64,000 bases of DNA from a virus (IMGVR_UViG_3300031413_000570), one strand, 5' to 3'. Positions 8,827 through 40,840 are shown, counted from the stretch's first letter. Translations and numbers: made by a program. Notes: a model not told the origin generated them from the letters alone.

Positions 8827-8888
8827 ATTACTAACATTTTAAAAGAAAAATGACCCCATTTTCAGGAGCCATTTTCTTCAGAATCAAA

Positions 8889-11440: not shown

Positions 11441-11541
11441 ATAACCTCAATCTGCTGTTCGGTTCGTATAGTAACAACAGTATCGGATAAATGGTGAGAT
11501 GTCAAGAAGCTGCTGGTCCATCAAGCTGTTAGAAATGAAGC

Positions 11542-12513
11542 ATGTGTTACCCAAAACCTGGTCCCCGTTGTTCAGCTCATGCTGCAGCTACTTTCGCTAA
11601 AGCTCATCAAGCAGTCCTCAGTGCCTTCATGGACAACCGTAAAGACCCAGAGCTTGAGAAGCTGATAGCGGTAAGAAAAAAAGCTGAAGCGGAGTACAAG
11701 CTGACACCAGCTTATCTAAAGTCTCTGGAAAGACAGATCAAAAAGAACCCAACGCAAGAATGGCATGCGGAAGAGTATGAAACACTTTCTCAAGAACGTT
11801 CCCGAAGATTAGCTGCTGTTGCGGATCGCAAAGTCATCACCCACAGAAAAGCGCAGAAGGCTGCTTACACTTCACCAAAGTTTTTCAAAACTGGTGACAC
11901 CCTCGAAGAGATGCATTACAAACATGCTGATTTGTTGAACAGTATGGCAGATTCCCAAAACTGGAGTGCCAAACTGGATGATACTGAAATAGCTACTCTT
12001 CGCTGGTATTCAGAAGATGGTTATGCTGACATCAACGGTCATCTTTCAGCTTCGAAGAACCCGTACGCAAAAAACGTTGCACCTGAAACGTTGGATGCAG
12101 CTGTAACCATTCTGGATGATGCTTTCGCTAAACACGAACCAGCAGAAGAAGGTGTGATGGTTTACCGCCGGCACCATCTATATGATGAAAAAGGTTACCA
12201 TTCAAGTGATGATGCTCAGAATCTTGACAAACATTTCCCTGTTGGTAGCACATACGAACCTAAGTTCTTCATGTCGACAAGTTTGAATCCTCAGGACTTA
12301 CCTTCTAAAGACAACATCAATGTTTCTCTACAGATTCTTACAAAAAGTGGTGCTCCAATCACAGCTATCTCATCGCAAGGTCCAAGAGAGTATGAGTTCA
12401 TCATTCCTCGCGGTGCAAAATTCGAAGTTGTTGCTAATGATGTGAAAGTCAAAAGGGTCAATAAAAAAGGTGAAGCAACTGAACTGACAATTGTGCAGCT
12501 GCGAGAAATTTAA
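11542..12513 (+). CDS. mono-ADP-ribosyltransferase (R-S-ExE class) with N-terminal C-x7-C-x2-H motif
   Basis: Catalytic triad elements VYRRH (Arg), FMSTSLNP (STS) and REYEFIIPRG (ExE). N-terminus MCYPKPGPRCSAHAA. Architecture similar to T4 Alt and toxin ARTs. Confidence 0.75.
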   Translation: MCYPKPGPRCSAHAAATFAKAHQAVLSAFMDNRKDPELEKLIAVRKKAEAEYKLTPAYLKSLERQIKKNPTQEWHAEEYETLSQERSRRLAAVADRKVITHRKAQKAAYTSPKFFKTGDTLEEMHYKHADLLNSMADSQNWSAKLDDTEIATLRWYSEDGYADINGHLSASKNPYAKNVAPETLDAAVTILDDAFAKHEPAEEGVMVYRRHHLYDEKGYHSSDDAQNLDKHFPVGSTYEPKFFMSTSLNPQDLPSKDNINVSLQILTKSGAPITAISSQGPREYEFIIPRGAKFEVVANDVKVKRVNKKGEATELTIVQLREI

Positions 12514-12518
12514 ACAGG

Positions 12519-12553
12519 TAAAGCCCCGAATCAAGTTACGATTCGGGGCTTTA
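12519..12553. terminator. bidirectional hairpin AAAGCCCCGAATC-loop-GATTCGGGGCTTT between convergent genes
   Basis: 13-bp GC-rich stem flanked by A/T runs on both sides. Confidence 0.6.
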
Positions 12554-12564
12554 CTCATGTTGGC

Positions 12565-13470
12565 TTAGAAGTCTCCGTAGTCAACCTGGAATACAGGAAG
12601 ACCCAGCTCACGACGATAAGCGTCGACAACCTGGTTCCGGTCATCCAAAGCTAACAGGATGTTGAAACGTTCCCGAATATGGGCATCAAAAAGTTCACGC
12701 TTGATGATGTTGTCTTTACGGTAGTCGTTATGAGGTCTCATGTAGATTTCGTCCACAGGAACACCAGCTACTTCCAGAGAAAGCAACGTGTCTGCCTTGC
12801 AGACTTCATCTCGACCAGACATAACAACAACTTTGTAGCCCTGAGCATGCAGAGCTTTCACTGTTTCAACAACAGGCGGGTTAGGCTCGTCGTCAATGAC
12901 TTTGTGCCAGTCAAACGGTCCACGATGTGAACCCATCTTCATGGCCGTACCGTCAACATCCAAAAGGATAGCTTTAGGCAGAGTCTCATCAGGAACATAG
13001 ATTCCTGCTGCAGCTGCTTCGTAGTCAAGTACAGGGAACGGAGGGAACTTACCGCTCTGGATGTAACGCTTGAATGTTGTTTCAATCACCTGTGCAGGAA
13101 CTTTACGCTCACGAGCAGCGTTACGGGCAAGAGCTGTCTCAAGCTCAACAGGGAAGTCCTGATGGACGACAGGAACGTTAGCTTTCTCCGCGATAAGGAG
13201 ATACTCTTTGACGTACTTGGCTTTCAAATTCACATTGTCAACGACAACACTTTTGCGTGCAGCAAGAAGAGCGGTGATGATGGCATGCTCCACTTTGGTA
13301 ACAGCGACTTCAAGCTCCTGAGGAAGCTCGTAGGAGCTGAACTGGCTGAGACGAATGTCATCACGGTTCACACGGGCACGGTTTAACGGGTCCTGGTTCA
13401 CCCAGCGGATGGCTTCTGTAGATTTACCGGAGCCCTGTACTCCCCGGTGAATCCGCATTATCTGTGACAT
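12565..13470 (-). CDS. pnk: polynucleotide 5'-kinase / 3'-phosphatase (T4 Pnk-like)
   Basis: N-terminal P-loop kinase GVQGSGKST. C-terminal HAD phosphatase motif LLDVDGT. ATG start chosen at MSQIM, with AGGAA 5 nt upstream. The track ORF begins at a TTG at 13497. Confidence 0.8.
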   Translation of the reverse strand: MSQIMRIHRGVQGSGKSTEAIRWVNQDPLNRARVNRDDIRLSQFSSYELPQELEVAVTKVEHAIITALLAARKSVVVDNVNLKAKYVKEYLLIAEKANVPVVHQDFPVELETALARNAARERKVPAQVIETTFKRYIQSGKFPPFPVLDYEAAAAGIYVPDETLPKAILLDVDGTAMKMGSHRGPFDWHKVIDDEPNPPVVETVKALHAQGYKVVVMSGRDEVCKADTLLSLEVAGVPVDEIYMRPHNDYRKDNIIKRELFDAHIRERFNILLALDDRNQVVDAYRRELGLPVFQVDYGDF

Positions 13471-13604
13471 TTTGTTTCCTAACTTAAGATACTCCAACTT
13501 ACCATGAAATCCGGCCAGCTGTCAAATACTATGTGCATTAGCTGTTGATGATAGAATTCTTTGACCGCTCATAAAGCTGACAACGATTAAGGAACATTAG
13601 CATC

Positions 13605-14093
13605 ATGCCCAACGACATCAAACTGGAAGACCTAACTGGTTGGTTACCTCCTCATGATCTATCTGGGTATGAGAACTTCAACTTCTGGTTCCTACTCATC
13701 CCAGCAGGGTTGCTCATCCTGGGTATGATTATCCCTGCTATTAGACAACTTCCTGTGATTCTGACTTGGCTTTTCACTATACTCCTTGTAGGAGCTGCTG
13801 GTTTCAGCTTCTGGCACATCTCATTCTTTCAACCTCAACAGAAAGTAGCTGCCTCAGAAGAAAGCTATTTGAAATGGTTTGACAAGAACTACTCTTATCT
13901 TGACCTCACAAAAGAAGAATCGCTTGAGATGCTTCACAATCAGAACGGTTTCTTAGATGAAGATGCAAAACGTAACTACATTCTGGAAACCAGTACTGAT
14001 AAAACTGACAAGCTCTACGTTTACTACCTGTCAGCAAAAACAGAATACGCTTACCGTGTAGCACCTCAAGATGTTGAGAAGTTTGACGGCTAA
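13605..14093 (+). CDS. membrane protein, hypothetical (three predicted transmembrane helices)
   Basis: Hydrophobic segments FWFLLIPAGLLILGMIIPAI and ILTWLFTILLVGAAGFSFW. Confidence 0.45.
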   Translation: MPNDIKLEDLTGWLPPHDLSGYENFNFWFLLIPAGLLILGMIIPAIRQLPVILTWLFTILLVGAAGFSFWHISFFQPQQKVAASEESYLKWFDKNYSYLDLTKEESLEMLHNQNGFLDEDAKRNYILETSTDKTDKLYVYYLSAKTEYAYRVAPQDVEKFDG

Positions 14094-14094
14094 A

Positions 14095-14751
14095 TCACAT
14101 TGAAGTATCCGCTGGGTCACGCCACCATGTTGGTAAAGTGACACAGCGGATTTTCTTTTTGTCCGCCAACTTCACAGTGTTAGGTCGGATGTCTAAAGCG
14201 GCGATAATGCCAGTAGTCTGAGCAAACTCAGGGTCTTCTTTCATCGACTCGACATAACGTTGTGTTTGACTCACACTGTTAATCATGGCCACTCGTTTCA
14301 CTTCTACAGCCACAGGATTACCTTCAGGGTCAGTGACCAGCAAATCAACAGCTCCTGCCCCTGTCTGATACTCTCTTTGAACAAACGTGTACCCTTCGCC
14401 TAAAGCTTCAGGGTTCTCTGCTAACCAAGCCTGCAACTGTTTCTCTGTCCCGTCACGGATCAATCCTTCATCGTTTCGGTCGAGGAGAAAGTCGGTGTCA
14501 GAAATTACTTCATGCAAGGTAATGCGGAGGCTTTCTTGCCTTGTGTCAAAAAACCACAGTTTATAATCTTCGAATTCAACTTCTGACAGCTCATTACCTT
14601 TGCCCATGTAGTTCAAAGGTTTGTTGCTTTTGTCGTTATGCACCGAAATGGAACCGTCATCTTTGACAATGATCGCTCGCACTGCTCGGGGAAGACGGGT
14701 ATCTCCTCTTCCTGTGTAAATGACTGAACAATCAGCTACTACTATTCTCAT
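14095..14751 (-). CDS. nucS: endonuclease NucS (EndoMS) homolog
   Basis: N-terminus MRIVVADCSVIYTGRGDTRLP matches the NucS N-terminal domain. C-terminal PD-(D/E)xK motif is AVDLLVTDPEGNPVAVEVK. 218 aa. Confidence 0.7.
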   Translation of the reverse strand: MRIVVADCSVIYTGRGDTRLPRAVRAIIVKDDGSISVHNDKSNKPLNYMGKGNELSEVEFEDYKLWFFDTRQESLRITLHEVISDTDFLLDRNDEGLIRDGTEKQLQAWLAENPEALGEGYTFVQREYQTGAGAVDLLVTDPEGNPVAVEVKRVAMINSVSQTQRYVESMKEDPEFAQTTGIIAALDIRPNTVKLADKKKIRCVTLPTWWRDPADTSM

Positions 14752-14809
14752 GGTTCCAAATCTGGTTGGGCAGAGTTTCAGTCTACCGGAAGTCTATTTT
14801 TTACTATCG

Positions 14810-15619
14810 TCAGCAGTGTTTGAAGGATGCTTGTAGAGGGTAATGGTCACTGCCTTTGTCCTCTATCAAAGTCTCTGTGCGAAGAATGTCACCCGCTGGA
14901 AAATTGGAGAGTATGTGGTCAATGATGTAGTCACCGTTAGCAGCTGTTTCTTCCACATAACCATGGTAACTGTTGTACTGACCGTTCACGTTTTCGTTAG
15001 CAGTTTTCTTCGCACAGGTGAACCCCATGACAGTTGGGGAGACAGAGTTGAAATCTCCAACAATGATTGCAGGATTGTTTTCTGGGTTAACTTCCTGAGC
15101 AAATTCGTGCAAGGCTATCAGACCTTTTACCTGCACTGCTGCATATCTGGCAATAAGTTCTTCATCTGTTAGCTCAATAGGAACATGCTGCTGATGAAGA
15201 TTGAAGAAATGAATCAAATCACCTGAAACATGCTCTAGCAGCACATGAGTGCTGTATCTGTTTTCAATATTAGGAAGCTCCTGCTGCTCTTCAGTAGTCC
15301 CTGTGGTGAGTAGCCTTACATGGCTTTGTTTGAGTTCAAATTTGTCAGCTTTCCAGAAGATAGGATTCCTTTGATGGAACTCATCGTCGTATTCGCTGAA
15401 GTCGTTATGGGAAGGTTCGTAACCGTCGAATCCGTTGTTGCGTAGTTGGTTTGAAACTTCTGGCCCTTGAACGTCTACATATGACACTTCTTGCAGACCG
15501 AACAGATCACCTAAAGTTGGCAAGGTTGCCAACAGCTCTTCTTTCCTTCCCTCCCAGCCATGGAATTCAGCTTTAGCGGCAGGTACTTGGATGTTGTATG
15601 AAGCAATAGTGAGAGTCAC
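14810..15619 (-). CDS. endonuclease/exonuclease/phosphatase (EEP) family protein
   Basis: EEP motifs SYNIQ (N-terminal), GDFN and SDHYPL (C-terminal). Confidence 0.65.
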   Translation of the reverse strand: MTLTIASYNIQVPAAKAEFHGWEGRKEELLATLPTLGDLFGLQEVSYVDVQGPEVSNQLRNNGFDGYEPSHNDFSEYDDEFHQRNPIFWKADKFELKQSHVRLLTTGTTEEQQELPNIENRYSTHVLLEHVSGDLIHFFNLHQQHVPIELTDEELIARYAAVQVKGLIALHEFAQEVNPENNPAIIVGDFNSVSPTVMGFTCAKKTANENVNGQYNSYHGYVEETAANGDYIIDHILSNFPAGDILRTETLIEDKGSDHYPLQASFKHC

Positions 15620-16137
15620 AGGGTTTCTAACATTCTTGTTTGTCGTTCAGAAGTTGTGTTCTTTGCTGAGTCAGCATACGCTGGTTTGCCGGCTTTTACC
15701 CGCCTGGCAGCTGCTTGAGCTTCTTTGTCGGCTTTGTTGTTCAAAGTGTCAGAGGCATGGCCTTTCACCCATTCGAATGTTGTTACAAGGTTTTTCTTTT
15801 TCCTGATTCTAAGAGCTTCGTAAAGAGCTTTCACATGGGTGAGGTTACTGACTGCTTTTGTCTGCTGGGTGTCACGCCACCAACCATTTTTCTTCCAAGT
15901 GAACATCCATTTGGTTGAAATGTCCATAGCGTAACGTGAGTCAATTTTGATGTGAAGGTCAGTGTTAGGGAAAGCATAAAGAACAGACAGTAACCCAATC
16001 AGTTCAGCTACCTGGTTTGTCCCGGTGGGTAAACCGTTTGCCTGCCAGCGTCCTTTGTTGTCCGCCCAGGACCACCCGATTGCACCGCCTGGATTTTTTA
16101 GGCATGAACCATCACAGGCAACTACAAGTTTATTCAT
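15616..16137 (-). CDS. rnhA: ribonuclease HI
   Basis: CDGSC..NPG, TNQVAEL, DSRY and VKGHASDTLNNKAD carry the D-E-D-D catalytic residues in canonical order. Confidence 0.85.
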   Translation of the reverse strand: MNKLVVACDGSCLKNPGGAIGWSWADNKGRWQANGLPTGTNQVAELIGLLSVLYAFPNTDLHIKIDSRYAMDISTKWMFTWKKNGWWRDTQQTKAVSNLTHVKALYEALRIRKKKNLVTTFEWVKGHASDTLNNKADKEAQAAARRVKAGKPAYADSAKNTTSERQTRMLETL

Positions 16138-16156
16138 GTCGACCTATATCGGATTC

Positions 16157-16609
16157 TTAGAACCGCACGTTACAAACGTACACTTCTCCATCGATAAACA
16201 TTTCGTTACGCTCATCATTCTCCAGCTGAGAAACCAAAGCGTCCCAGTCAGTAGAAGAAAGAAGGTTGGAGGACACTTCAGATTTGAGTAACTCTTTCAC
16301 TTCTTCACCAGAGGTTCCTGCTCTAAAGAAGAACCATCCTTGTTCGTCAGATAGTGAGTACAAGCTAATCTGAATGTTTTTCGCAAAAAGTAGCCAGTTC
16401 TCTATAGTGTCTGGTTGAGGTTCTTCTTCTGCGTAGAAACTACCTTGGAAGTTATCAAGTCCTGCGTTCAGTACGATAAGCCAAATACGTTCATCATCAG
16501 TAACTGGCTTGCCAGCTTCCAAAGAACTGATTAGCCTTTTCAGCTCAGGATAAAAGCTTTGGACTGTGAAACTTTCTTTCAAGTCAAGAGTTGGAGTCAT
16601 GTTTACCAT
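16157..16609 (-). CDS. hypothetical protein (150 aa, acidic)
   Basis: Complete ORF. No motif recognised. Confidence 0.45.
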   Translation of the reverse strand: MVNMTPTLDLKESFTVQSFYPELKRLISSLEAGKPVTDDERIWLIVLNAGLDNFQGSFYAEEEPQPDTIENWLLFAKNIQISLYSLSDEQGWFFFRAGTSGEEVKELLKSEVSSNLLSSTDWDALVSQLENDERNEMFIDGEVYVCNVRF

Positions 16610-17022
16610 GTGAGTTCGCTGAAAGCCAGCGTTCCTTTCTTAGCGTGTGTTTCAACAGTGTTTACCCATGTGTCATAATGCTGAATCAAAGGGAAAGGTA
16701 ATTCAGGACTAAATTGACGTGCAGTGTAGTCGTACACGGTGAGTTCTTCTGAAACAGGATCGGTGATACCTACTGCTACATGCCACCACACTTCACTCCC
16801 GGTAAGAGCTTCAACACTTACCAGCTCAGCGTTTTCAAGTAGCCTTGAGTTAAGGATGGTTCTGGAAACATCTTCACAATGTCCAACAGCTGCATAACTG
16901 TCATCCATTTGAGCAATACTGTAACTGTCGCCTGCAATGTCAGTGAATTGCAGTTGAATGATCTTGCGATGAGTGATTATACCTTCAGGGAGCATGCAAT
17001 GATTATAGCTTGTTTTCTTCAT
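16603..17022 (-). CDS. hypothetical protein (139 aa)
   Basis: Complete ORF overlapping the downstream gene by 7 nt. Confidence 0.45.
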   Translation of the reverse strand: MKKTSYNHCMLPEGIITHRKIIQLQFTDIAGDSYSIAQMDDSYAAVGHCEDVSRTILNSRLLENAELVSVEALTGSEVWWHVAVGITDPVSEELTVYDYTARQFSPELPFPLIQHYDTWVNTVETHAKKGTLAFSELTW

Positions 17023-17037
17023 GTCAGCAATTTAACC

Positions 17038-17071
17038 AATTGCGCCGCCTCAGTGAGAAGGCGGCGCAATA
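17038..17071 (-). terminator. GC-rich hairpin ATTGCGCCGCCT-loop-AAGGCGGCGCAAT
   Basis: Perfect 12-bp stem downstream of gene 17117..17905. Confidence 0.45.
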
Positions 17072-17116
17072 AAGGAGTTAGATAACACAGTTTTACCTGC
17101 ACTACTATATCTAACG

Positions 17117-17905
17117 TCAGTTGATTTCTGAGGAGTTATTAGTCGACTTTTTCGATGTCATTAAGCAGTTCTCTTTGTCCCAATCCAAAGCAATCTTTTG
17201 ACCATAGTCTCCGAACCTATTTTTGCGAACGACTAAGTTAACACCCTCTCCTTCAACATGAGAGGTAAGCACTACATCCGAGTTTTGAACCAAATCAGAA
17301 GAATGTCTGAAATGGGCTTTTTCGTGTGCAGATTGTGTACTCAAATGAGTAAGAAGAAGCACTGGAAGGTTCAGCTCAATCGCCATTTTTTTGATTTGAG
17401 CAGACATAGCAGCTGCTTCTTGGACCGTAGGCAATCCAGGAGTCAGAAAATCAAAAGAGTCAATAACAATGAGCTCGACATCAGATTCATCTTTGATGTC
17501 ATGTACTGATGACACCATACCTTTCAAAGAGCCTACCAAGTTACCAAACTGTTCTCGCCCGATGTAGATGAAAATAAGGTCAGAAGAATCGTCATCCTGC
17601 TTACTGTCTAAAGTGCGAAATTCTTGTCCATAGATTTCCGAGGAAACATACAAAGCTCTTTTATTTTTGGCACCTTCTGCGATGCTGATAGCTGTGCTTG
17701 TGGCACCTCCTCCTGGTCCAGAGCCAAGAAGAGTAACTGAACCTTTTCTTAGTCCACCGTCCAAAACTTTATTGAGTTCAGACCATGGAGTAGGAAACTT
17801 GTCAGAGGTTCCATAAAGCTGGCGGGAAGCTTCGAGGTACGGTTCACCAGTGTGCTTCATTCGTTCACGAATGGCTTTTTTCTGGAAACTGTTTGTAGTC
17901 ATCAT
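17117..17905 (-). CDS. RecA-superfamily ATPase (DnaB C-terminal / KaiC / RadA-like)
   Basis: P-loop-like LLGSGPGGGATS followed by the hydrophobic-D motif LIVIDSFD, typical of the RecA fold. 262 aa. Confidence 0.5.
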   Translation of the reverse strand: MMTTNSFQKKAIRERMKHTGEPYLEASRQLYGTSDKFPTPWSELNKVLDGGLRKGSVTLLGSGPGGGATSTAISIAEGAKNKRALYVSSEIYGQEFRTLDSKQDDDSSDLIFIYIGREQFGNLVGSLKGMVSSVHDIKDESDVELIVIDSFDFLTPGLPTVQEAAAMSAQIKKMAIELNLPVLLLTHLSTQSAHEKAHFRHSSDLVQNSDVVLTSHVEGEGVNLVVRKNRFGDYGQKIALDWDKENCLMTSKKSTNNSSEIN

Positions 17906-18099
17906 TTACCTATTTTCTGACAGTCAACCTACGCTCAACCGTCAAATAGAATGATGGTGAGATAACAGAATCCTCGGGACCTTGCTCTCAACAGCGAAAC
18001 CGCGTAGGAGTAATCACTTGAGACGGGCGACTGTTATCGCCAACTGAGACAAGTCTACCATCTTTACTCCACTCTGACAACTTTTTGGTATGTTGTTCG

Positions 18100-18759
18100 C
18101 TACTTTTGGTGTGCTTCGTACGTAGCCATTAGCCTTTTAGCTTCAGGAGTTTCACCATAGTTACTAAGGAATGTCTCGTTAGTCCAGTTCAGACCCATCG
18201 ATTCTTTAGCTACCCATCTTTCAGCTGCTTCTAAAAGTACCTTGTAACGCTTCAAAGACTTTTTAGTTTCAGCAAGTAGCTTTGTCATATCACTCAATGT
18301 TGCAGATGTAAACTCAAAGAAATCGCCAGTGTTAGTGTCAACTTCAGGGTCGAAGCTGATAGCAGAGGCTTCAACATCATGTTTGAGGATTTCTAACTGC
18401 TCAGCTGCATCCTGAACCAGTTCTTTCAGCTCTGCTTTGTCCTCAATCAGATTCTTCTGGTCATAACCAACAGAAGTAAAGATGAACTTCCATACATCAT
18501 CTTCGTTACCGACAAAACCCCAGTCGGATTCAACTAACTCAACCATTAAGTCGTCAGCAATAGGAATTCCTATATCTTTCTGACTGTCATATACACGCTG
18601 GTATTGTTTTACCAATTCAAGCTGAGTTGACTGCATAGGTACAGAGATATGGAACTCACCCTCTGGGGTTTCCAAATGCCACGTAGGAGGTGCATCATAT
18701 GCTGCTTTTTCTACCAGCTTGACCCATTTACCGTTAGCTTCTACTTTAATGTTGTCCAT
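18100..18759 (-). CDS. hypothetical protein (219 aa, acidic)
   Basis: Complete ORF. Confidence 0.45.
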   Translation of the reverse strand: MDNIKVEANGKWVKLVEKAAYDAPPTWHLETPEGEFHISVPMQSTQLELVKQYQRVYDSQKDIGIPIADDLMVELVESDWGFVGNEDDVWKFIFTSVGYDQKNLIEDKAELKELVQDAAEQLEILKHDVEASAISFDPEVDTNTGDFFEFTSATLSDMTKLLAETKKSLKRYKVLLEAAERWVAKESMGLNWTNETFLSNYGETPEAKRLMATYEAHQK

Positions 18760-18843
18760 GGTAACTCCTGTTACGCTTTATTGGTGTTGTACAGGTCAAT
18801 TGTAACACAATGGTGATGACCCAGGCCGAACTATGCCGTTTCT

Positions 18844-19473
18844 TTGTTCCACACTATTTATGTCTTCTACCTAATTTGTTTGATACAATTGGATACCAAG
18901 ACAGAATGGTTGAAACACCTAATGGCTAAAGAAACAAACAAACGACCAGCTAAAATAGCTGATGTCCTCAACACATTACCTAAAAGAGAACTTGCTCATT
19001 ACGCTCATGGCGAATGGGCTAAGCTCATCCCAGTTCCTGAAGCTACACGAGTAGTCACTGCACTGACTTTAGATGAAGTCTTTGAAGCTCAACGCACAGG
19101 AGCAGAACTTCAGGTTACGGTGGTTATTTCTTACCGCCTGAGCATGTTAGGCGACAGTAACGGCTGGAACGAGAGTGACACTTCTCTGTATGTGAATGAA
19201 GATGAACAGGGACATAAGTCTGTCGCAATTAAGTTTGAAGAAATCCATAAGGAGTTGAAGTTACGAATCAATCAGGTTCAAAGCTTCCAACCTTCTGACG
19301 CTCGCCCGCATCAAGATGTTCCTCCATCTGCAGACACATGGGTGGCAAAAGGATACACAACTGGTTACCATGAGTACAATTACAACGCAGGTGGAGAATG
19401 GTACAACAGCCATTATGTTCTGACTTGCGAAAAAGGTGTCATCACCTGGGAATATATAGCTAAAAAGAACTAA
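18844..19473 (+). CDS. hypothetical protein (209 aa)
   Basis: Complete ORF ending at a strong terminator. Confidence 0.45.
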   Translation: MFHTIYVFYLICLIQLDTKTEWLKHLMAKETNKRPAKIADVLNTLPKRELAHYAHGEWAKLIPVPEATRVVTALTLDEVFEAQRTGAELQVTVVISYRLSMLGDSNGWNESDTSLYVNEDEQGHKSVAIKFEEIHKELKLRINQVQSFQPSDARPHQDVPPSADTWVAKGYTTGYHEYNYNAGGEWYNSHYVLTCEKGVITWEYIAKKN

Positions 19474-19513
19474 GTAGAAAGGCCCTGACTGAAGTGTCAG
19501 GGCCTTTCTACTT
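19474..19513. terminator. perfect 17-bp hairpin AGTAGAAAGGCCCTGAC-TGAAG-GTCAGGGCCTTTCTACT
   Basis: Lies between convergent genes. Confidence 0.65.
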
Positions 19514-19527
19514 AGTCGTAAAAATTT

Positions 19528-19575
19528 AATCTGAAAGGGACGCTACTATTGTTACGGTAGCGTCCCTTTCAGATT
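19528..19575. terminator. second perfect hairpin ATCTGAAAGGGACGCTAC ... GTAGCGTCCCTTTCAGAT
   Basis: 18-bp stem immediately after the dnaK stop. Forms a tandem terminator with 19474..19513. Confidence 0.6.
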
Positions 19576-19585
19576 GTTTCAGAAG

Positions 19586-21478
<1,893 letters not shown>

Positions 21479-21564
21479 TTATAGTACACCATTTTGGGGG
21501 ATAAGACAAATTAAATAAGAAAAACCTGAGTCACCACGACTCAGGTTTTTCTTATTTGCTATTT

Positions 21565-23043
21565 TCAGCTATTACGACGTGCGGCACGCAGGCGAGGAAG
21601 TCTGCGAAGAACGAATCCGCCAATCAGCATAAGGCCACCCATGAAGGTGAGGAATACAGTGGAGCTGGAATCAGAACCAGTGTAAGCCAAAGCTCGGGTG
21701 TTGGTGTCTGAACGGTCACCACGTTCAGTTACGTTGCCCAATTCGTCATTGTCGTAACCTCCAGTGTTACCCAACTCATCGTTGTCGTAACCTCCGGTGT
21801 TGAACTCTTCCTCAGGAATCAGGGATACTCCACCTGAAGAAGGGTCACGAGGAGTTGTTTCTGGTTCAGTCTCAGGAGTGACTCCTGCATCTGGGTTTGT
21901 AGGTGTGACTGGAGCTTCAGGGTCAGTAGGGGTTGTAGGGTCCACTGGAAGGGTAGGGTCTACAGGAGTTTCTGGGTCCACTGGAGTCTCAGGGTCTACA
22001 GGGATAACAGGGTCTTCTCCAGGAACGATAACTTCATCATCCTGGTTCACAACAAGAAGGCTGGTCCAACCAATGATGTTGTTGTCTGCATCAGACACGA
22101 CGATACGATGTTCACCAGTTTGGGTGCCTGCTGGAATTGTGACATCAACGTTTCCATCAACGTCAGTCTGAACCCAGCCAGCGAGAAGCACAGGAGTGGA
22201 ATGAATCCATACTGACACCCATGTTTCAGGAGCAGCAACGCTTGCAGCAGAAACTGTTACAGTGTCACCAGGAAAAGCAACTGCAGCGTTCACAGAAATA
22301 AGGTTCTCCACATCAACAGGAAGGGCTTCATCCTGCTGCATGACAGGAGCCTCTGAAGGTGCAGGGTTTTCTGTTACTGCGTCAATAGCTACAGAGAAGT
22401 CATATACTTCACCAGCGACCAATGTGACACCACCAGCAGGTAGAGGGTTGCCGTTGAGTAGGACAACTGGGCTTAGTGTTGTGTTTTCAATGTCTGGTAA
22501 ACCAGTTACTGAGACCTGGACTGTAGAGCCTTCAGGGATGTCAATAGTTGTAGGAGGGACATCTCGGGTGAGGTAAACAACGTTATCCTGCACTTCGTCA
22601 TTCACTAAAGAAGTGTAATGAACTTCAAGTGTTAGATTTTCAGGAACAGTTGAAGTGTCACCAGCGAAAGCTAAAGCAAAGGTTGTTGCAACCAAAGCAT
22701 TTTCCTCCGCAGGGACCTCTTCAACTGGTGCTTCTTCAGTAGGAACTTCTTCAACTGGTGCTTCTTCAGTAGGAACTTCTTCTACTGGAACTTCTTCAGA
22801 TGGTACAACTATTTCAGGTTCGGTTTCCTCTGGTACTGCAACCTCAGGAACAGGTACTTCTTCTGCGGTGGGGTCAGCTACTGGAGTAACTTCCTCAGTA
22901 CCAGTTTCTACTTCCGTAGGAACATCTTGTGTTGTAGTAGGAGCTGCCTCATCTGCAAGTGCTGGGGAAGCTACAAACGCTACCGCACTCAATGAAACTG
23001 TAGCTGCTACAGCTACTCCTACAATTTTTTGACCAATTGGCAT
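21565..23043 (-). CDS. cell-wall-anchored surface protein (signal peptide, acidic Pro/Glu repeats, C-terminal LAYTG sorting motif, transmembrane helix and [11 protein letters not shown] tail)
   Basis: N-terminal signal peptide ending ASPALA|DE. C-terminal LAxTG, hydrophobic segment and basic tail together form a sortase-substrate architecture. Repeats [20 protein letters not shown] and [11 protein letters not shown]. Confidence 0.65.
22711..22800. repeat. 30-nt in-frame tandem repeat, three copies (encoding [10 protein letters not shown]) inside the surface-protein gene
   Basis: Unit aggaacttcttcaactggtgcttcttcagt repeated, read directly. Confidence 0.6.
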
Positions 23044-23189
23044 AATAACAGTAATCTTTCCGTATTTTGAACGTTAGCACCAGCTTACATTATATTTCAA
23101 TGACAAGCAAATTAGGCGGTTCCTTATGTTGTAGTATCTGTAAAAACCTAATTAAATGCGATTCTTTAGCAAACTATTGTTATTGCTGT

Positions 23190-23462
23190 TTATACGGTAA
23201 GTTGATAAAGCCTTTGTTTGATTTCGAAGCTCAATTCTGGATGATCGATGAGCTTATCGTAATCAATTTTGTATTTAGAGAAAAAGAACAGCAGCATTGT
23301 TGATACTGAGCCTTCACTGTCTTCGATGTAATGATCGGAAGTAATAGCAACCTGTTCAGTGACAACATAACGGAGCAGAACGTTTTGAGCGTGCCTAGGT
23401 TTTTTACCAGCCGCAACAACAATCGCCACTAAATCAGCAACACTCATTCTTCTCATGTCCAT
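23190..23462 (-). CDS. hypothetical protein (90 aa)
   Basis: ORF in the gap between the surface-protein gene and RNA-ligase paralog 2. Weak call. Confidence 0.35.
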   Translation of the reverse strand: MDMRRMSVADLVAIVVAAGKKPRHAQNVLLRYVVTEQVAITSDHYIEDSEGSVSTMLLFFFSKYKIDYDKLIDHPELSFEIKQRLYQLTV

Positions 23463-23549
23463 CTCTAACCAATCGGATGCAGATTAGTTGACTTGGAGAC
23501 CTGTCTTCTGCTATCGTTGATTAGATACTGATCTAACGAAAGAACCATC

Positions 23550-24671: not shown

Positions 24672-24673
24672 AC

Positions 24674-24719
24674 GATAAAAGCCGGCACAACAGAATTCTT
24701 TGTTGTGCCGGCTTTTATC
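24674..24719. terminator. bidirectional hairpin GATAAAAGCCGGCACAACA-GAATTC-TGTTGTGCCGGCTTTTATC
   Basis: Perfect stem of about 19 bp between convergent genes. Confidence 0.65.
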
Positions 24720-24721
24720 GT

Positions 24722-27471: not shown

Positions 27472-27557
27472 GATGATTCATTCTAACAGGTTTGTTGGTC
27501 TGATTTGCTTTTACCTGAAAAGTGCCATAAAATGAGTGTGCTACTTATTGAGGAGTT

Positions 27558-28019
27558 TTGAATATGAACGACGCTGGCTACCTTCAGCTTGCTATTGACA
27601 CAGCTGTAAAGAACGTGGAAAGCGGTAATGGTGGACCTTTTGGGGCTGTCATTCTTTTCCCTAATGGCGACACGGTTGCTGTGGGGAACTCTGTAACTAC
27701 CACGATTGACCCTACAGCTCATGCAGAAGTGAATGCTATCAGAGCTGCTTGTGCCAAGGCTGGAGTGTTCAACCTGGAAGGATGTGTTCTTTATTCATCC
27801 TGTGAGCCTTGCCCTATGTGTCTGGGTGCTGCTCTGTGGTCTCGTGTTGACCGGATTGTGTTCTCGGCTGACCGTTACGATGCAGCGGATTCCGGTTTTG
27901 ACGATGCAGCGTTCTATGAGAAGCTTGCAGCTGGGAATGTTGCCGAGCGGATGATTCTGGATAACTCAGTGCAGCCTTTCACCACCTGGAATGAGTATCA
28001 GTTGCGTACAGAATATTAA
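27558..28019 (+). CDS. nucleoside/nucleotide deaminase (CDA fold; guanine deaminase or TadA-like)
   Basis: Zinc-binding H(A)E and PCxxC motifs: PTAHAEVNAIR and SCEPCPMCLGA. Confidence 0.75.
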   Translation: MNMNDAGYLQLAIDTAVKNVESGNGGPFGAVILFPNGDTVAVGNSVTTTIDPTAHAEVNAIRAACAKAGVFNLEGCVLYSSCEPCPMCLGAALWSRVDRIVFSADRYDAADSGFDDAAFYEKLAAGNVAERMILDNSVQPFTTWNEYQLRTEY

Positions 28020-28108
28020 ATACTAAAATTCACGTTCTTGACCCCCAAACGAGGGATAGGAGCCGATTACCTTTGCAACCTAAACAGGGGATAACAAAGG
28101 GGTAATAC

Positions 28109-29596
28109 GTGAACCACAAACAAACGCAACCTGCCCGATTCAGGGCTTTAGGCGTTGCACTATTAGCTACACTTGTTCTACCTTTCGCTACAGCTACATC
28201 CGCTTCAGCTGCAACCGCTCCGTCTGATGCATCCATTCTGTCTTCAATGACAACAGATGTTTACCAGTCAATCAATCCTAAAAGCCAAGCTAATCTACTC
28301 ACTGTCAACTCAAAAGAAATTGACAGTGCCAAAAACAGCTACGGTTTTACAGAGACTAAAGGAGTTGTCTTCAAAGCTAACCATGACCAAAAAACAGGGT
28401 TAGTGCCAGTTTATCGTCTGCATAAAAACGGCGATTTCATCTGGGTAGCAAAATCTTCCTCCTCCAACGAACTTGCTGTTGCCCAGAGTAAATACGGGTA
28501 CAAAGAGCAAGGAATCAATTTCTACGCTTCAACCAAAAACCTTTCCGGTAGCCAGCCAGTCTACCGTTTCCAGAAAAGTGGTAAGCATCGTTATGCAACA
28601 ACTGAAGCTGAAAGAACTGCCCTGACAGCAGCCGGCTGGGCAGCTGAAGGAATCTCCTTTTACGGAGCTAAAACCTCCCCTGTTGTTACACCACCAACAA
28701 CTCCGCCAGTAAACCCTGCTGATGCTGACGGAAAGTTCACAATGGCGGTAATCCCAGACACCCAACAAGAAGTTGGAACAGACACCAGATTTGTGAACAG
28801 GACACAATGGCTTGTTGATAACAAAAACGCTTTGGATTTGCGCTACGTCAACCACACTGGTGATGTCGTCAACTGGGATACTCCAAACCACGAACAGTAC
28901 GTTGTTGCATCGAAAGCTATGAAAGTTTTAGATGACAACAAAATCCAGAACTCTCTCACCATCGGGAACCATGATACAGCTGCTGTAGGTGTTGGTGGTT
29001 CTGCTGCTGACCCTAAAAACACTCGCACGTTAGTACGGAACACCACCACTTTCAATAGCTACTTCAGTCCTTCTCGTTACCCAGGTATTACAACCTTCGA
29101 AGCTGGAAAAGTCGACAATGCTTACCAGACTTTCAACGCTGCTGACAAAAAGTGGTTGGTATTGACTCTGGAACTCTGGCCACGCACTGAGGTTGTTGAC
29201 TGGGCAAAGACAGTTGTAGCTGCACACCCTGACTACAATGTCATTGTTTCCACCCATTCATATTTGAACGGCGACGGAAGCATTGACCAGTCAGCCAGTT
29301 ATGGAAGCAACTCAGCTCAGTACGTATACGACAATCTTGTCAAGCAGTACCCAAACATCAAAGTTGTCTTATCTGGTCATGTCGGTGAAGCTGGCTACCG
29401 AGAAGATGTGGGAGTAAACGGCAACAAGATTGTTTCCTACTTGGGAACATTCCATTCAAACACCACTAACCCTGTACGGACTTTGGAGTTCGACACAAAA
29501 ACAGGCAGTTTAACAACCCATTTCTATGGACCATCCAATGGAACAACATGGACACAGTATGACAGAACCACCACTGGAGTAGCCTTCGTAGGCTAA
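28109..29596 (+). CDS. secreted metallophosphoesterase (calcineurin-like) with N-terminal repeat domain
   Basis: Signal peptide ...ATSASA|ATAP. Two repeats of about 45 aa (PVYRLHKNGDF / PVYRFQKSGKH). Phosphoesterase motifs TIGNHDTA and VVLSGHVGEAG. Confidence 0.6.
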   Translation: MNHKQTQPARFRALGVALLATLVLPFATATSASAATAPSDASILSSMTTDVYQSINPKSQANLLTVNSKEIDSAKNSYGFTETKGVVFKANHDQKTGLVPVYRLHKNGDFIWVAKSSSSNELAVAQSKYGYKEQGINFYASTKNLSGSQPVYRFQKSGKHRYATTEAERTALTAAGWAAEGISFYGAKTSPVVTPPTTPPVNPADADGKFTMAVIPDTQQEVGTDTRFVNRTQWLVDNKNALDLRYVNHTGDVVNWDTPNHEQYVVASKAMKVLDDNKIQNSLTIGNHDTAAVGVGGSAADPKNTRTLVRNTTTFNSYFSPSRYPGITTFEAGKVDNAYQTFNAADKKWLVLTLELWPRTEVVDWAKTVVAAHPDYNVIVSTHSYLNGDGSIDQSASYGSNSAQYVYDNLVKQYPNIKVVLSGHVGEAGYREDVGVNGNKIVSYLGTFHSNTTNPVRTLEFDTKTGSLTTHFYGPSNGTTWTQYDRTTTGVAFVG

Positions 29597-29613
29597 CTAT
29601 TGCAGACAAAGAG

Positions 29614-29650
29614 ATGCGGGGCCCAAGTACTTAGTACCTGGGCCCCGCAG
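29614..29650 (+). terminator. hairpin TGCGGGGCCCAAGTAC-TTA-GTACCTGGGCCCCGCA
   Basis: GC-rich 16-bp stem with one mismatch, directly after the stop codon. Confidence 0.6.
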
Positions 29651-29857
29651 TGTGCAACGGAAGAAAGTTACACATGTCATCAGTTTTCTTTATCCCCCGA
29701 ATCAAGAAGAACTAACCTTTTAACGTTATCGGACGATTTTCATCCTTAACCGAACTAAAAGGTATTTTTCTTCAAAAGAAATCTGATGACGCTTACCAAT
29801 TTTCTACTGCCCCATAAGTTTAACAGCTTTTTTGAGGGAAAGTCATTTTCAGCGATT

Positions 29858-38056: not shown

Positions 38057-38153
38057 AGATTTCTTTCGTTAGGTATGGGGTTTCATACATCTTAGCATGG
38101 TTGAAGCCTCACGCCTTATTACTACAGGCGTGAGGCTTCAAAGGTTTGACTGG

Positions 38154-39896
38154 TTATGAATCCTGTAATGCTGGGTTCAAAGCTCCTGGGTTCAACTGGA
38201 TAGTTGAAGTCTTACCTTCTGTTGTTGTGAACTTGACCATACCGCCTTGTTCGCTGACTGTTTTGATGTTCTCGTAAGTTGCTTCGTCAATATTACCGAA
38301 GTTACCTGAGAGGTCCCAATCGTAAATACGGAAATCGTCTTCACCTTGACAGTTAGCTACACCGTACTCACCTTGGTAGGTAGTTGGCAGCTTACCAGCC
38401 TGGAGTTCATCCAAGCAGGAGTTTGAAGTTGTTCCTGCAGCTGGTTTTGCTGCACGATAGAAGTTGGTCATTCGGTAGCTGCTTGTGACTTCAATTCCAA
38501 CAGTTGGAGCATTGGAGTTGTATGAACTCTGGGTGTAGGAATCTGTTCTGTCTTCACGAGGAATTTCGTAGTAGAACTCGCTTGGGGTGTTTGACGCCTG
38601 GGAGAAGAACGGTGTACTTGAACCGTTGAGGTACAATTCAACTGTGGTTCCGTTAGCTGAAGTCCAGAACTGTTCCATGCTTCCTGGGCTGTAGTAGTAA
38701 GCCTGTCCTGTTGGGTCACAAGCAACTTTCTTGTAAGTTCCCTCTTCTGACCAGCAACCGTCAGTACGAGCGGTAAGTGTTGGCTGTCCCATTGTTTGGA
38801 ACATTGACTCGTAAGATGTGAACATTGCAGACATGCTGGTGTTACAGTTTTGGTCAACATAGAAAGCGGTTGCAAGGGTTTCATTGGTTGTCTGAGCATC
38901 AGTGTATAAGTTGTTGTACTTGTTGCACTGACCGCCAGGCTGGTCACCGCCTGGAGGGGTGAAAGACCCTGCTACGTTGATGGTGATTGAGTCAGGACAA
39001 CCAGCTGGTAGGAAAATTACTTGCCCTCTTTCAGCGAAAGTTTGAGCTTCTTCCAGGGTAGCTCCAATGTATCCGTTAGTGGTTTGGATGCCTACTGCTG
39101 TCTGGATTCCGTCTGATGATTGAATGTATTCCCAGCTACCAGCAATCTCAATTTCTTCACTGTCTAAGTAAGCTTTTACTTGTGTTACCTGTGTGGCTGG
39201 GTCTGTAGGTGCGCAAGTTGGGTCTGGTTCAACACCATAGTTGATTTCACCATTGCGAATGTGAATAACTGCTGAGAGACCCTGTTGTTCAAAATAGGTT
39301 CCATCAAGGGAGGAGTTGTATCCAATACCACCGTTGTCATCACCGAACATGTCTTCAAGGTTCAGACACTCTGACTGGTCACCTTCTTGGTACATGCGAG
39401 GTGCGCTGATTTTGTTGTCAATCCAGAAACGGTTGCCTGTCTCTGAGGTAATGACAGCAACATAGCAGTCTTTGTTGTTTGTTCCTGTGGAAACTATAAG
39501 ACGTTCAGATTCTTGAAGCAAACCTCCATGTTCGGCTTTCAAATCGTCATAGTTACCAAAAGTCTGTTTCTTCTCTCCATCATCGCCAACGCTGAAACCA
39601 GCATATGCTGACTCTGCTGTATGTACTGAGGAGAGAGATGCTTTTGCTGCTTTGTCCTGTGCCCAAGGAATGATAGCGAATACTGTTGCAGAGATTACTC
39701 CACCGATGAGGCCGATGACGATGACACCAACCATGATGGAAGCTAAGTCAATGGCGGCTTGTGAAGAGCTAAAAGCTGCTCTTATTTTTGTGTAGTTTTG
39801 AATAGGCGGGTGCGTGCTGCCAGCAGACATACAGATTCTTCTCTCTAAGGGGGTTAGGTAGCTGAAAAAAGTATCGGTTATTAACAAGCTTTTCAC
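38154..39896 (-). CDS. large exported protein with type IV pilin-like N-terminal domain (paralog 1 of 4)
   Basis: After a leader, SSSQAAIDLASIMVGVIVIGLIGGVISATVFAIIPWAQDKAAKASLSSVHTAESAY closely matches the N-termini of the ORFs at 60000, 61407 and 62891. A large variable C-terminal domain follows. The true start is probably the internal MSAGSTH. Confidence 0.55.
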   Translation of the reverse strand: MKSLLITDTFFSYLTPLERRICMSAGSTHPPIQNYTKIRAAFSSSQAAIDLASIMVGVIVIGLIGGVISATVFAIIPWAQDKAAKASLSSVHTAESAYAGFSVGDDGEKKQTFGNYDDLKAEHGGLLQESERLIVSTGTNNKDCYVAVITSETGNRFWIDNKISAPRMYQEGDQSECLNLEDMFGDDNGGIGYNSSLDGTYFEQQGLSAVIHIRNGEINYGVEPDPTCAPTDPATQVTQVKAYLDSEEIEIAGSWEYIQSSDGIQTAVGIQTTNGYIGATLEEAQTFAERGQVIFLPAGCPDSITINVAGSFTPPGGDQPGGQCNKYNNLYTDAQTTNETLATAFYVDQNCNTSMSAMFTSYESMFQTMGQPTLTARTDGCWSEEGTYKKVACDPTGQAYYYSPGSMEQFWTSANGTTVELYLNGSSTPFFSQASNTPSEFYYEIPREDRTDSYTQSSYNSNAPTVGIEVTSSYRMTNFYRAAKPAAGTTSNSCLDELQAGKLPTTYQGEYGVANCQGEDDFRIYDWDLSGNFGNIDEATYENIKTVSEQGGMVKFTTTEGKTSTIQLNPGALNPALQDS

Positions 39897-39974
39897 AGGT
39901 TCTCATAACACCTAATTGAAAAACAATGGCGGTCCAGGACAATTAGCATCCTGGACCGCCATAATGATGGTTTG

Positions 39975-40787
39975 TTATTTGGCTTGTGCAATCATTTTCA
40001 ACACTGCCGGCACTTCTTTCCACTTCTTCACACGATACTTTGAAGGGACAGCTGCGTTGTACGCATTCTCAAACGCGATAACCGTTTTACCGTTCTTCTG
40101 TAGAGTGTTAATCTGCTTGTCAGAGTCATCAATGTACACATCGATACCTGGGACTTTCTCTTTGTCCTCAGTGTGAGTGATAGAGGTGAAAGGAATGCGG
40201 TGACGACGCAACCACTGACGGGTCTCTTCATTCCATCTATTACCACGAGCTGTCACAACGCGAACTTCAACGTCACGGCTACTGACCAAAGTACGGAGAG
40301 TTTTGCTCACCCCATCAAAAGCTTTCATTTTGGAGTAGACACCATTCTCTTCCGCTGAATGGAAAGCATCCAAGAAGGAATTCACGTCAGTGAACCATCC
40401 TGAATCTACGAAAGAGTAATGAGTTGGAGGGCTGGGAAGAAGCGTCTCAGCCTGCTCAGGAGTAAGGCCCTGTGTCTTCATGACATGGTTACGAATAGAT
40501 TCCGTAAAGTCACCACTTGTGTTGTCCACATCCAACGCGAGAACCAAAGGTGTTTTGCGAAGGTTGGTTTCACGCTCAGCTTGAGCGATGAGGTTTGCCC
40601 TACGGGTTTCATATTTCGCAGCTAACGCGTCTTTGCCTTGAGCTTTGAGGTCAGCGATACCAGCTAATGAAGTGAAGTAGTTCCTTCTTGCAAGCTTGAT
40701 GCGTTCAAGATCACCAGACTTTTCTGCAGCTTCAAGTTTGATGCGAGCATGGTAGCTGCAACGAGGGTATGGTTTGCGTTTGCACAT
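39975..40787 (-). CDS. HAD-superfamily 5'(3')-nucleotidase-like protein with N-terminal C-x7-C-x2-H motif
   Basis: DxD HAD motif LALDVDNTSGDF after an N-terminal extension of about 80 aa that begins MCKRKPYPRCSYHA. Confidence 0.55.
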   Translation of the reverse strand: MCKRKPYPRCSYHARIKLEAAEKSGDLERIKLARRNYFTSLAGIADLKAQGKDALAAKYETRRANLIAQAERETNLRKTPLVLALDVDNTSGDFTESIRNHVMKTQGLTPEQAETLLPSPPTHYSFVDSGWFTDVNSFLDAFHSAEENGVYSKMKAFDGVSKTLRTLVSSRDVEVRVVTARGNRWNEETRQWLRRHRIPFTSITHTEDKEKVPGIDVYIDDSDKQINTLQKNGKTVIAFENAYNAAVPSKYRVKKWKEVPAVLKMIAQAK

Positions 40788-40840
40788 AGTTTTGTATTCC
40801 TAACAGATAGCAAGAAAAATCTTATCTGCTGCACACCATA

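Follow-up and report, generated by a model that had tools for sequence, protein, structure and literature searches.

The stretch of 64,000 nucleotides from the viral sequence IMGVR_UViG_3300031413_000570 that we analysed (the window; roughly kb 200-264 of a metagenomic contig of 307,689 bp) contains five genes whose proteins begin with a common arrangement of cysteines and a histidine, C-x7-C-x2-H, which we call a knuckle. In three of these proteins the knuckle opens an N-terminal domain of about 60-100 residues, the type A module. We found that this domain is homologous between its carriers, modular, present in multiple copies, under selection at the protein level and also found outside viruses. 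As to its role, we tentatively read it as a zinc-stabilised docking handle, which would tether a cohort of enzymes to a nucleic acid or to a nucleoprotein hub.

Five proteins of the window share an N-terminal motif

An earlier note on this DNA had listed five open reading frames (ORFs) that carry the pattern C-x2-P-x4-C-x2-H close to the N-terminus. All five ORFs are present and, upon translation, start as described there. A six-frame search of the whole window for C-x7-C-x2-H returned, among the long ORFs, these five only, and the motif was N-terminal in every case. Of the 99 window ORFs with at least 100 residues, 5 are positive in the first 24 residues and 0.0235 are expected; when the residues of the same 99 ORFs were shuffled, there were never more than 2 N-terminal matches in 2000 trials. 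A chance origin of the five motifs can thus be ruled out. The exact form of the pattern has to be corrected, though: the part common to all five is C-x7-C-x2-H, and C-x2-P-x4-C is limited to the proteins starting at 35399 and 36460, whereas those starting at 11542, 33502 and 40787 read C-x-P-x-P-x-P-x-C or C-x3-P-x-P-x-C. In all five, the motif lies within residues 2-20.

The five proteins form two groups. Type A, with the pattern MC[YK]xKP[GY]PRCSxHA followed by helices, comprises A1 (11542), A2 (33502) and A3 (40787); A1 and A2 both start with MCYPKPGPRCSAHAA. Type B, with the pattern CAKPxGxYCRLHNP, is found in two tandem paralogs, B1 (35399; SNCAKPAGQYCRLHNP) and B2 (36460; TKCAKPKGAYCRLHNP), which are 38% identical (4e-71). 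About 65 residues are shared by the type A proteins of the window; they comprise the knuckle, one helix and the element EYxxTPAGLKxL. Since B1 and B2 are tandem paralogs and A1 and A2 are paralogs over their full length, the five proteins are not independent, and the window offers three independent contexts: an ADP-ribosyltransferase (ART) and a HAD enzyme that each carry type A, and an ART that carries type B. Paralogy of whole genes accounts for the two pairs, but neither for the sharing between ART and HAD proteins nor for the many cargo families described below. A hidden Markov model (HMM) of type A does not detect type B (E = 0.53), and hhalign gives a probability of 15%. Homology between the two types beyond the knuckle is therefore not demonstrable; the grouping of the five is functional and positional, with common descent not proven.

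As for the enzymes that follow the motif, the earlier assignments agree with Pfam in the case of A1 and B1 (ART, PF03496) and of A3 (NT5C, PF06941; E-values in Table 1). For B2, the match to PF03496 is weak (5e-4) and under the Pfam cut-off. In the A1 subfamily R209, the STS motif and E283-x-E285, as expected of an ART, are invariant in 49 sequences, and the ART core of A1 has Foldseek matches to VIP2, Certhrax, CDTa/iota Ia and C3 (about 1e-10), with alignments of about 200 residues, which is the length of the ART core. A3 contains LDVDNT, a DxD nucleophile motif, at residues 85-90 and matches phrog_415 and phrog_2643; judged from these features, its cargo qualifies as a HAD-superfamily phosphatase of the NT5C/PNKP type, which may act on a mononucleotide or on a polynucleotide 3'-phosphate. 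The 70 to 150 residues between motif and enzyme, earlier taken for a spacer, are predicted to be a folded helical domain and not a linker.

The type A module is a large family

We searched a type A profile exhaustively against 1.84 billion cluster representatives from public metagenomes (clusters at 50% identity) and obtained 717 proteins at E <= 1e-3, of which 158 reach E <= 1e-10. A word-indexed protein search is insensitive for such a short module and had given 2, then 5 matches. In 149 of the 150 best representatives the match begins at residue 1, and the exception resembles a mis-called start. Among the same 150, the start MC-x7-C-x2-H is found in 134, with M1, C2, P6, P8, R9 and C10 invariant and Y3, G7 and S11 almost invariant. 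The codons at the invariant positions cover all synonyms (6 for Arg, 6 for Ser, 4 for Pro and 4 for Gly), hence selection acts on the peptide. The loop of 11 residues does not vary although the GC content ranges from 36% to 62%, suggesting a partner that is itself highly conserved.

The C-terminal cargo of the 150 representatives belongs to at least 49 unrelated families. By Pfam, these include VIP2/C3-type ARTs (48), LRV repeats (10), HEAT repeats, DUF7226, LPD29, YqaJ with RNase_T, and HD; PHROGs adds nucleotidyltransferases, a phosphohydrolase and exonucleases, and GNAT-like proteins are also seen. Most cargo families have no annotation at all, and cargo clusters 2 and 4 as well as P0110 have no PDB relative by sequence. 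The identifiable cargo other than ART consists mainly of nucleic-acid enzymes, namely RecE/YqaJ and DnaQ exonucleases, PNKP-type HAD, HD, nucleotidyltransferases and SprT-like proteins. There are also stand-alone modules of 84-146 residues that have no cargo. Residues 1-30 have a net charge of +3.5, which is positive in 90% of the members, and the remainder of the protein averages -6. The idea that the motif marks a cohort of enzymes has held up well: it heads a modular domain on many unrelated enzymes, and the five window genes have the upstream element GTTAGRDAT in common. Because the module is both abundant and extremely conserved, a sequence rule of a single line retrieves dozens of unknown enzyme families.

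We could not connect the module to a known family. There was no match in Pfam, PHROGs, NCBIfam or the PDB sequences, and Foldseek gave no informative neighbour of the fold in PDB or BFVD (E > 0.7). The module is absent from 50,697 cultured-phage records (INPHARED; tblastn at E <= 0.01 and at E <= 10), and megablast of the region against cultured phages returned nothing. In IMG/VR there were 0 exact pattern matches; an earlier scan had produced 28 pattern matches, none of which was confirmed. The sulfatase FGE pattern (C-x-P-x-R), the c-type haem motif (CxxCH), the lipobox and ATCUN can be set aside, as their spacing or context does not match. Within the literature searched, the string PGPRCS occurs in no paper, and the module is not described in PMC7824862, PMC9503650 or PMC5512222.

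Knuckles of further types head similar cargo (ART, DUF7226, LRV, KTSC with Amidoligase_2, and SprT-like proteins). The type B sequence KCSKPVGEYCRLHNP is kept in a homolog of B2 (54% identity) at locus L079. Types C, D and E read KC[RQ]AKGGPxxCxDPxCPE, MCxxKxxGG[RK]RCxxH and C[RKS]AxxPxxCR[YK]H, respectively, and one type C protein runs on as '...AAQFEYDTTRGGI', resembling type A. All types retain three ligand-like residues (C, C, and H, C or D) in the forms C-x7-9-C-x2-H, C-x7-C-R-x-H and C-x7/8-C-x4-C, as is expected of a metal site in which H, C and D are interchangeable.

In addition, we observed arrays of 6-9 consecutive knuckle genes, with 8 copies in L079 (Ga0247742_10001429, 2254-10093), at least 9 in 11 kb in L033 (1-11180) and 6-7 in 10 kb in L083 (2262-10345). 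The L079 array combines types A, B and C. Small intergenic ORFs that could be immunity genes were found in none of the three arrays.

Predicted structure and a possible metal site

The AlphaFold2 (AF2) model of the module, calculated from 40 aligned modules, has a predicted local distance difference test score (pLDDT) of 87.8. In it a beta-bridge joins residues 2 and 10, so that Cys2 and Cys10 would be neighbours where helix 1 begins, and there are helices at 11-31, 36-53 and 56-68. The model of full-length A1 (48 homologs; pLDDT 93.1, predicted template modelling score, pTM, 0.91) adds a fourth helix at 73-91 and an ordered coil at 92-128 that contains His101 and is followed by the ART domain. 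Such a pTM suggests a defined arrangement of module and ART and not a floppy leader.

The earlier note had also considered a metal-binding knuckle. This is plausible in so far as three ligand-like residues are kept and the model places C2 beside C10; binding itself is something we infer from these two observations. The module is not a classical zinc knuckle or treble clef, which would have four ligands in canonical spacing, as there are only C2, C10 and H13 in C-x7-C-x2-H. His101 is 94% conserved, in the ART subfamily only, where C2, C10, H13 and H101 might together form a CCHH site.

Genomic setting and distribution

The window encodes DnaK, two T4-type RNA ligases, PNKP, RNase H, DnaB, ribonucleotide reductase (RNR), dCMP deaminases, two synthases of nicotinamide adenine dinucleotide (NAD), NucS, a WGR-PARP protein and many genes without known function; this content probably reflects a phage-like element with an actinobacterial host. 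The knuckle genes sit among genes of nucleic-acid and NAD metabolism. No virion gene was identified near the knuckle genes of the window, where many neighbours are unannotated.

We scanned the JGI metagenomes with a DNA pattern for MCYxxPGPRC and found 74 loci, with the module on phage-like contigs of 0.2-0.9 Mb. Several type A genes each are present on contigs of 725-885 kb, which would rank among the largest phage genomes reported if they are phages: Ga0308161_1000006, Ga0308158_10000009, Ga0308164_10000004, Ga0265797_10000002 and JAAIGE0101188732.1 (loci L044/L052/L078, L048/L050/L059, L068/L072/L080, L028/L034/L077 and L025). At least one of these, Ga0308158_10000009 (L050), shares homologs with the window, for example PARP (47% identity) and the RNR small subunit (66%). 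Three contigs from human skin, similar in coverage, hold other type A loci.

The module is also found beyond phage-like contigs. Demequina sediminis has two copies in an element that resembles an integrative and conjugative element (ICE), together with a tyrosine integrase, a methylase, TrbL/VirB6 and two pilin-like proteins. In Agrococcus sediminis the module lies beside NikA-like, SprT-like and LRV proteins. Plasmids with a module are Kineococcus pKRAD01 (MCQKKPGPRCSAH) and Rhodococcus pR8L1 (MCKPKPGPRCTPH; WP_231917486.1, near FtsK/SpoIIIE and ParA). All cellular matches belong to Actinomycetota. Together with two hints at a Gram-positive actinobacterial host, a homolog of NucS/EndoMS, which is typical of Actinomycetota and Archaea, and a protein of 492 residues with a weak match to the LPXTG cell-wall anchor (E = 0.015), this makes an actinobacterial host phylum probable. 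Many window genes have no Shine-Dalgarno (SD) sequence and, instead, a -10-like element 5-9 nt from the ATG; these genes add to the probability of such a host, as do the ART domains nearest to those of the module among cultured phages, which are fusions of MuF ('minor capsid') and ART of Mycobacterium prophages and of phrog_595.

A common upstream element

All five knuckle genes of the window have GTTAGRDAT 5-8 nt before the ATG. There are 10 matches to this element in the window (2.1 expected), and 5 of them precede the five knuckle genes. Altogether about 13 of the approximately 65 called genes of the window have GTTAG in this position, including those for RNA ligase, PNKP, Exo_endo_phos and the YqaJ/DnaQ exonuclease; none of these genes has a virion-protein annotation, and several are unannotated. 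A second upstream class, CCGATAnG, precedes other genes of the window. The position of GTTAG and its form TGnTAnAnn suggest an extended -10 element that may give leaderless or near-leaderless mRNAs, which would put the knuckle cohort into one expression class with nucleic-acid repair enzymes.

Such an element raises the question of whether the motif is part of a mobile cassette at the 5' end of genes, which was spread by recombination and has no specific role in the protein, or whether it is a signal at the RNA level. Either would automatically yield a position that is N-terminal only, the element is present upstream of all five window genes and of 27 of 103 related type A genes, and paralogy explains part of the sharing within the window. 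We nevertheless regard this explanation as very improbable. The upstream regions differ by lineage (45 of the 103 genes are SD-like and 27 have GTTAG), the peptide is invariant even though all synonymous codons are used, and the module is kept throughout the above range of GC contents and in plasmids, all of which points to strong selection on the protein.

What the module may do

We infer the following mechanism. The knuckle caps an N-terminal domain that consists of a short proline-rich Cys loop (MCYPKPGPRC) and, after it, three to four helices. Zn2+ probably closes the loop through Cys2, Cys10 and His13; in the ART subfamily, His101 may supply a fourth ligand. Huge phage-like genomes, ICEs and large plasmids, all of them mobile elements of Actinomycetota, carry this domain in front of many unrelated enzymes. 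Its basic knuckle would, together with the first helix, attach to a single conserved and polyanionic partner in the cell that is invaded. The likeliest partner would be a nucleic acid or a nucleoprotein machine, e.g. RNA polymerase, the ribosome or the nucleoid. Such binding would bring the cohort together at a single site, or activate it there, during host takeover.

Since phages, the ICE and plasmids have the module but no shared transfer machine, the partner common to them would have to be a generic polyanion or belong to the host. Such a partner is in line with three points: the basic residues 1-30, the nucleic-acid cargo and the analogy to PARP. In PARP1, a nucleic-acid-binding finger stands ahead of the ART domain and so illustrates the logic; together with the PARP that neighbours the knuckle genes in the window, this is meant as an analogy only.

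On the other hand, a number of points weigh against a docking handle. Only two cysteines are strictly invariant in the module, and 15 of the 150 best representatives have Y, S or D instead of His13; a disulfide, or an intermolecular site with two ligands, is equally possible. That H13 and H101 are never missing together in the ART subfamily carries no significance, as only 0.67 such cases would be expected. Metal binding and nucleic-acid binding are both predictions, and the fold has no informative structural neighbour. Outside the knuckle, type A could not be shown to be homologous to types B, C or E, and A and B are linked by the knuckle only. With most cargo unannotated, the description as nucleic-acid enzymes reflects a minority of it, and ARTs of the VIP2/C3-like ExE type mostly modify proteins. 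Finally, the strict N-terminal position and a cargo that resembles that of polyvalent proteins (LPD29, KTSC, Amidoligase_2, SprT) fit a leader for delivery at least as well.

The module might also regulate the enzyme to which it is attached and not direct it to any site: a switch that responds to redox state or metal could hold toxic enzymes inactive, a hook with two Cys per chain, similar to the Rad50 zinc hook, could assemble them into oligomers, and an N-terminal degron could shorten their lifetime. Two strictly invariant cysteines would be in line with this, AF2 packs the module onto the ART domain with an ordered connector (pTM 0.91), many of the cargo proteins are potentially toxic (ARTs, nucleases) and lie in arrays that are free of small immunity-like ORFs, and stand-alone modules could act in trans. 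Yet specific packing against at least 49 unrelated folds is unlikely, LRV/HEAT repeats and a HAD phosphatase need no obvious restraint, and the invariant PGPR loop suggests a partner outside the protein. We therefore consider regulation quite unlikely.

Delivery leader or T4-type signal

According to a further explanation, the module routes the enzymes into the virion or the conjugative route, so that they arrive with the DNA and act before gene expression. The module is always at the extreme N-terminus, as are the capsid-targeting sequences of T4 and the propeptides of 20-254 residues in giant-phage head proteins (PMC10052503), and it is confined to elements that transfer DNA. A constant leader with variable effectors, in arrays without small ORFs in between, resembles trafficking domains. 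The cargo overlaps with that of polyvalent proteins, which are supposedly injected (ART, LPD29, SprT-like, KTSC, Amidoligase_2, GNAT; PMC5512222), and the closest ARTs of cultured phages are the MuF-ART fusions mentioned above. However, capsids, type IV secretion systems (T4SS) and FtsK-type transfer have no machinery in common by which one invariant signal could be read. Folded as it is, the module is predicted to pack rigidly against the ART domain; stand-alone copies have no cargo to deliver, and there is no similarity to the capsid-targeting sequence of T4 or to MuF. The annotated neighbours contain no virion gene, and the upstream element is shared with genes for RNA repair and nucleases. 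A delivery leader thus appears somewhat unlikely.

The earlier note had drawn the analogy to the capsid-targeting sequence of T4 more specifically, and in this form it is not supported. Prohead proteases cut at [ASG]-x-E in phiKZ-like phages and at [LI]-x-E in T4. When 49 ART-type members were aligned, no site of either kind was conserved in the stretch from residue 90 to residue 130; the best [ASG]-x-E site anywhere is present in 10 of the 49. Both consensus sequences come from other phages, and the protease of this lineage may have a different specificity. The extreme N-terminal position agrees with a T4-type signal (149 of the 150 best representatives). A restriction to viruses that build proheads, on the other hand, is contradicted by the Demequina ICE, the Agrococcus element and the Rhodococcus and Kineococcus plasmids, and the module is folded and occurs in stand-alone copies. 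Because it is present on capsid-less plasmids and a conjugative element and no protease site follows it, a T4-style capsid signal is not its general role. Capsid targeting does explain the N-terminal position, the effector-like cargo and the resemblance to MuF-ART, and delivery of the cohort with the DNA is possible. It is also conceivable, if unlikely, that the module is the universal 'effector leader' of both actinobacterial conjugative elements and an uncultured clade with the largest phage-like genomes known (contigs of up to 885 kb), and that each protein starting with it is loaded for co-transfer with DNA by touching, through a bridging metal, a conserved part of the delivery route. If so, an N-terminal regular expression would list the whole injected arsenal of these elements, which would have several members per genome and dozens of cargo folds, mostly of unknown function.

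Comparison with known systems

T4 Alt, which is an ART, and IPI-III, as well as the propeptides of SPN3US and phiKZ, resemble our proteins in having an N-terminal tag common to different proteins. Unlike these tags, the module is rich in Cys and folded, is predicted to belong to the fold of the mature protein and has no sequence similarity to them. Fusions of MuF (SPP1 gp7) to effectors and polyvalent proteins likewise have a constant N-terminus and variable effectors, in phages and conjugative elements, and ARTs are their commonest effectors (PMC5512222, PMC9503650). The module is unrelated to MuF (no Pfam or PHROG match), however, and only the ART part is similar. Furthermore, polyvalent proteins have 2-15 domains, whereas most module proteins are short (about 330 residues) and have a single cargo, as do the window proteins with 270-346 residues; among the relatives there are multidomain proteins, namely KTSC+Amidoligase_2 proteins of 912 and 1059 residues and a YqaJ+DnaQ protein of 792 residues.

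Polymorphic toxins with LXG, PAAR or Rhs, and toxins with VIP2-N, Ia-N or CDTa-N, are similar in that a helical or compact N-terminal domain addresses a C-terminal toxin. They differ from the module proteins, which have no small immunity-like ORFs, are encoded by phage-like elements and plasmids instead of toxin loci and show no similarity to LXG or the VIP2 N-domain. A small basic Cys/His knuckle ahead of an NAD-using or nucleic-acid enzyme is also seen in PARP1 FI/FII, APLF PBZ and the retroviral CCHC knuckles. Here the spacing differs (C-x7-C-x2-H vs C-x2-C-x28-30-H-x2-C or C-x2-C-x4-H-x4-C), the module has three obvious ligands, and homology is not detectable.

A constant N-terminal module with variable effectors is thus a known concept, and it is how injected, secreted and polymorphic toxin arsenals are recognised elsewhere; new are the module itself, its proline-rich knuckle with three ligands, the size of the family and its restriction to mobile elements of actinobacteria, among them phage-like contigs of nearly 0.9 Mb. 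The identity of the partner would tell an injected protein arsenal from convergence on one host hub, and it would also yield a portable targeting tag for Actinomycetota. The window holds a WGR-PARP gene, two NAD synthases and, counting the split A2, four R-S-E ART genes, and so is a good entry to NAD-based host takeover.

Features of the window

Table 1. Knuckle genes, upstream elements and further features of the window
Feature	Position	Strand	Basis or remark
A1: type A module (residues 1-~101) + VIP2/C3-like R-S-ExE ART, 323 aa	11542..12513	+	PF03496 1e-21; type A HMM 2.8e-28
A1 knuckle C2-x7-C10-x2-H13	11545-11580	+	
A2-N: type A module + linker, N-terminal half of ART, 170 aa	32990..33502	-	type A HMM 8e-33; aligns with A1 1-173
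A2-C: catalytic half of ART, 154 aa, own ATG overlapping the upstream stop	32536..33000	-	aligns with A1 182-323; PF03496
A3: type A module (MCKRKPYPRCSYHA, residues 1-~65) + HAD phosphatase of NT5C/PNKP type, 270 aa	39975..40787	-	PF06941 3e-17; type A HMM 5.6e-25; phrog_415 'polynucleotide kinase' 8e-11
B1: type B knuckle (C9-AKPAGQY-C17-RL-H20) + ART, 336 aa	34389..35399	-	PF03496 4e-13
B2: type B knuckle (C7-AKPKGAY-C15-RL-H18) + divergent ART, 346 aa	35420..36460	-	tandem paralog of B1
Candidate sixth member: YqaJ + DnaQ-like exonuclease	47715..49826	+	GTTAGAGAT-5nt-ATG signature; N-terminal C-x5-C-x6-H (MKNYHKQQSGKRQGDWVRCPAQKKCTLINGEH)
GTTAGAAAT element, 5 nt before the ATG of A1	11528..11536	+	GTTAGRDAT class
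GTTAGRDAT copies at the other four knuckle genes	33508-33516, 35405-35413, 36466-36474, 40796-40804	-	
Further GTTAGRDAT/GTTAG copies	47701-47709 (+), 23461-23469 (-)		also before starts 10130, 13470, 15619, 26489, 27471
T4-type RNA ligase	8889-10130	-	
NucS/EndoMS homolog	14095-14751	-	
Protein of 492 aa with weak LPXTG match	21565-23043	-	
WGR + PARP catalytic domain	36561-37889	-	PHROG label 'polymerase'
Pilin-like paralogs (four)	38154-39896, 60000-61277, 61407-62795, 62891-63985	-	
dNMP-kinase-like + C5 DNA methyltransferase, 905 aa	43074-45791	-	Hint_2 / Intein_splicing

The ART gene A2 is frameshifted by one extra A at 32990-33010(-), where the window reads CCAATAAA and an intact allele, 97.7% identical (L095, contig Ga0308158_10000466), reads CCATAAA. 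The frameshift is also present in an independent ENA assembly. As the downstream half has its own ATG, the split could possibly give two polypeptides; a comparable split of an ART is found among the relatives, where P0152 (42 residues) is followed by an ART of 286 residues in L007.

For the exonuclease gene listed as a candidate sixth member, the GTTAGAGAT-5nt-ATG signature makes ATG 47715 the probable start, in place of the called M34. This start yields an N-terminal RCPAQKKC...H motif, and homologs of the exonuclease elsewhere (P0068, L064, L037) bear the type A module in its stead.

The WGR-PARP gene lies immediately upstream of B2 and B1 and contains a perfect TGCTATAAT 6 nt ahead of an internal ATG at 37865. 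Another Cys/His motif, MSNTRKPPYYHNDGTNCWTKDCS (H-x5-C-x4-C), opens the T4-type RNA ligase and is kept in the homologs at L056, L067 and L087.

The four pilin-like paralogs share the N-terminus ..KAAIDLASIMVGVI(V/I)IGLIGGVI..IPW(A/S)QDKAAK and have large and variable C-termini (He_PIG, DUF285). The first copy comes directly after A3, and pilin-like or N_methyl genes are found at most 3 kb from knuckle genes in L001, L002, L006 (the ICE), L007, L052/L080 and L068/L078. An obligatory partnership was rejected, given that there are about 8 such contexts, that most loci are without a pilin-like gene and that the window copies, the one at 38154-39830 included, are under the Pfam threshold for N_methyl. 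The large gene listed last in Table 1 encodes an N-terminus similar to deoxynucleoside monophosphate (dNMP) kinases and a C5 DNA methyltransferase that an intein interrupts.

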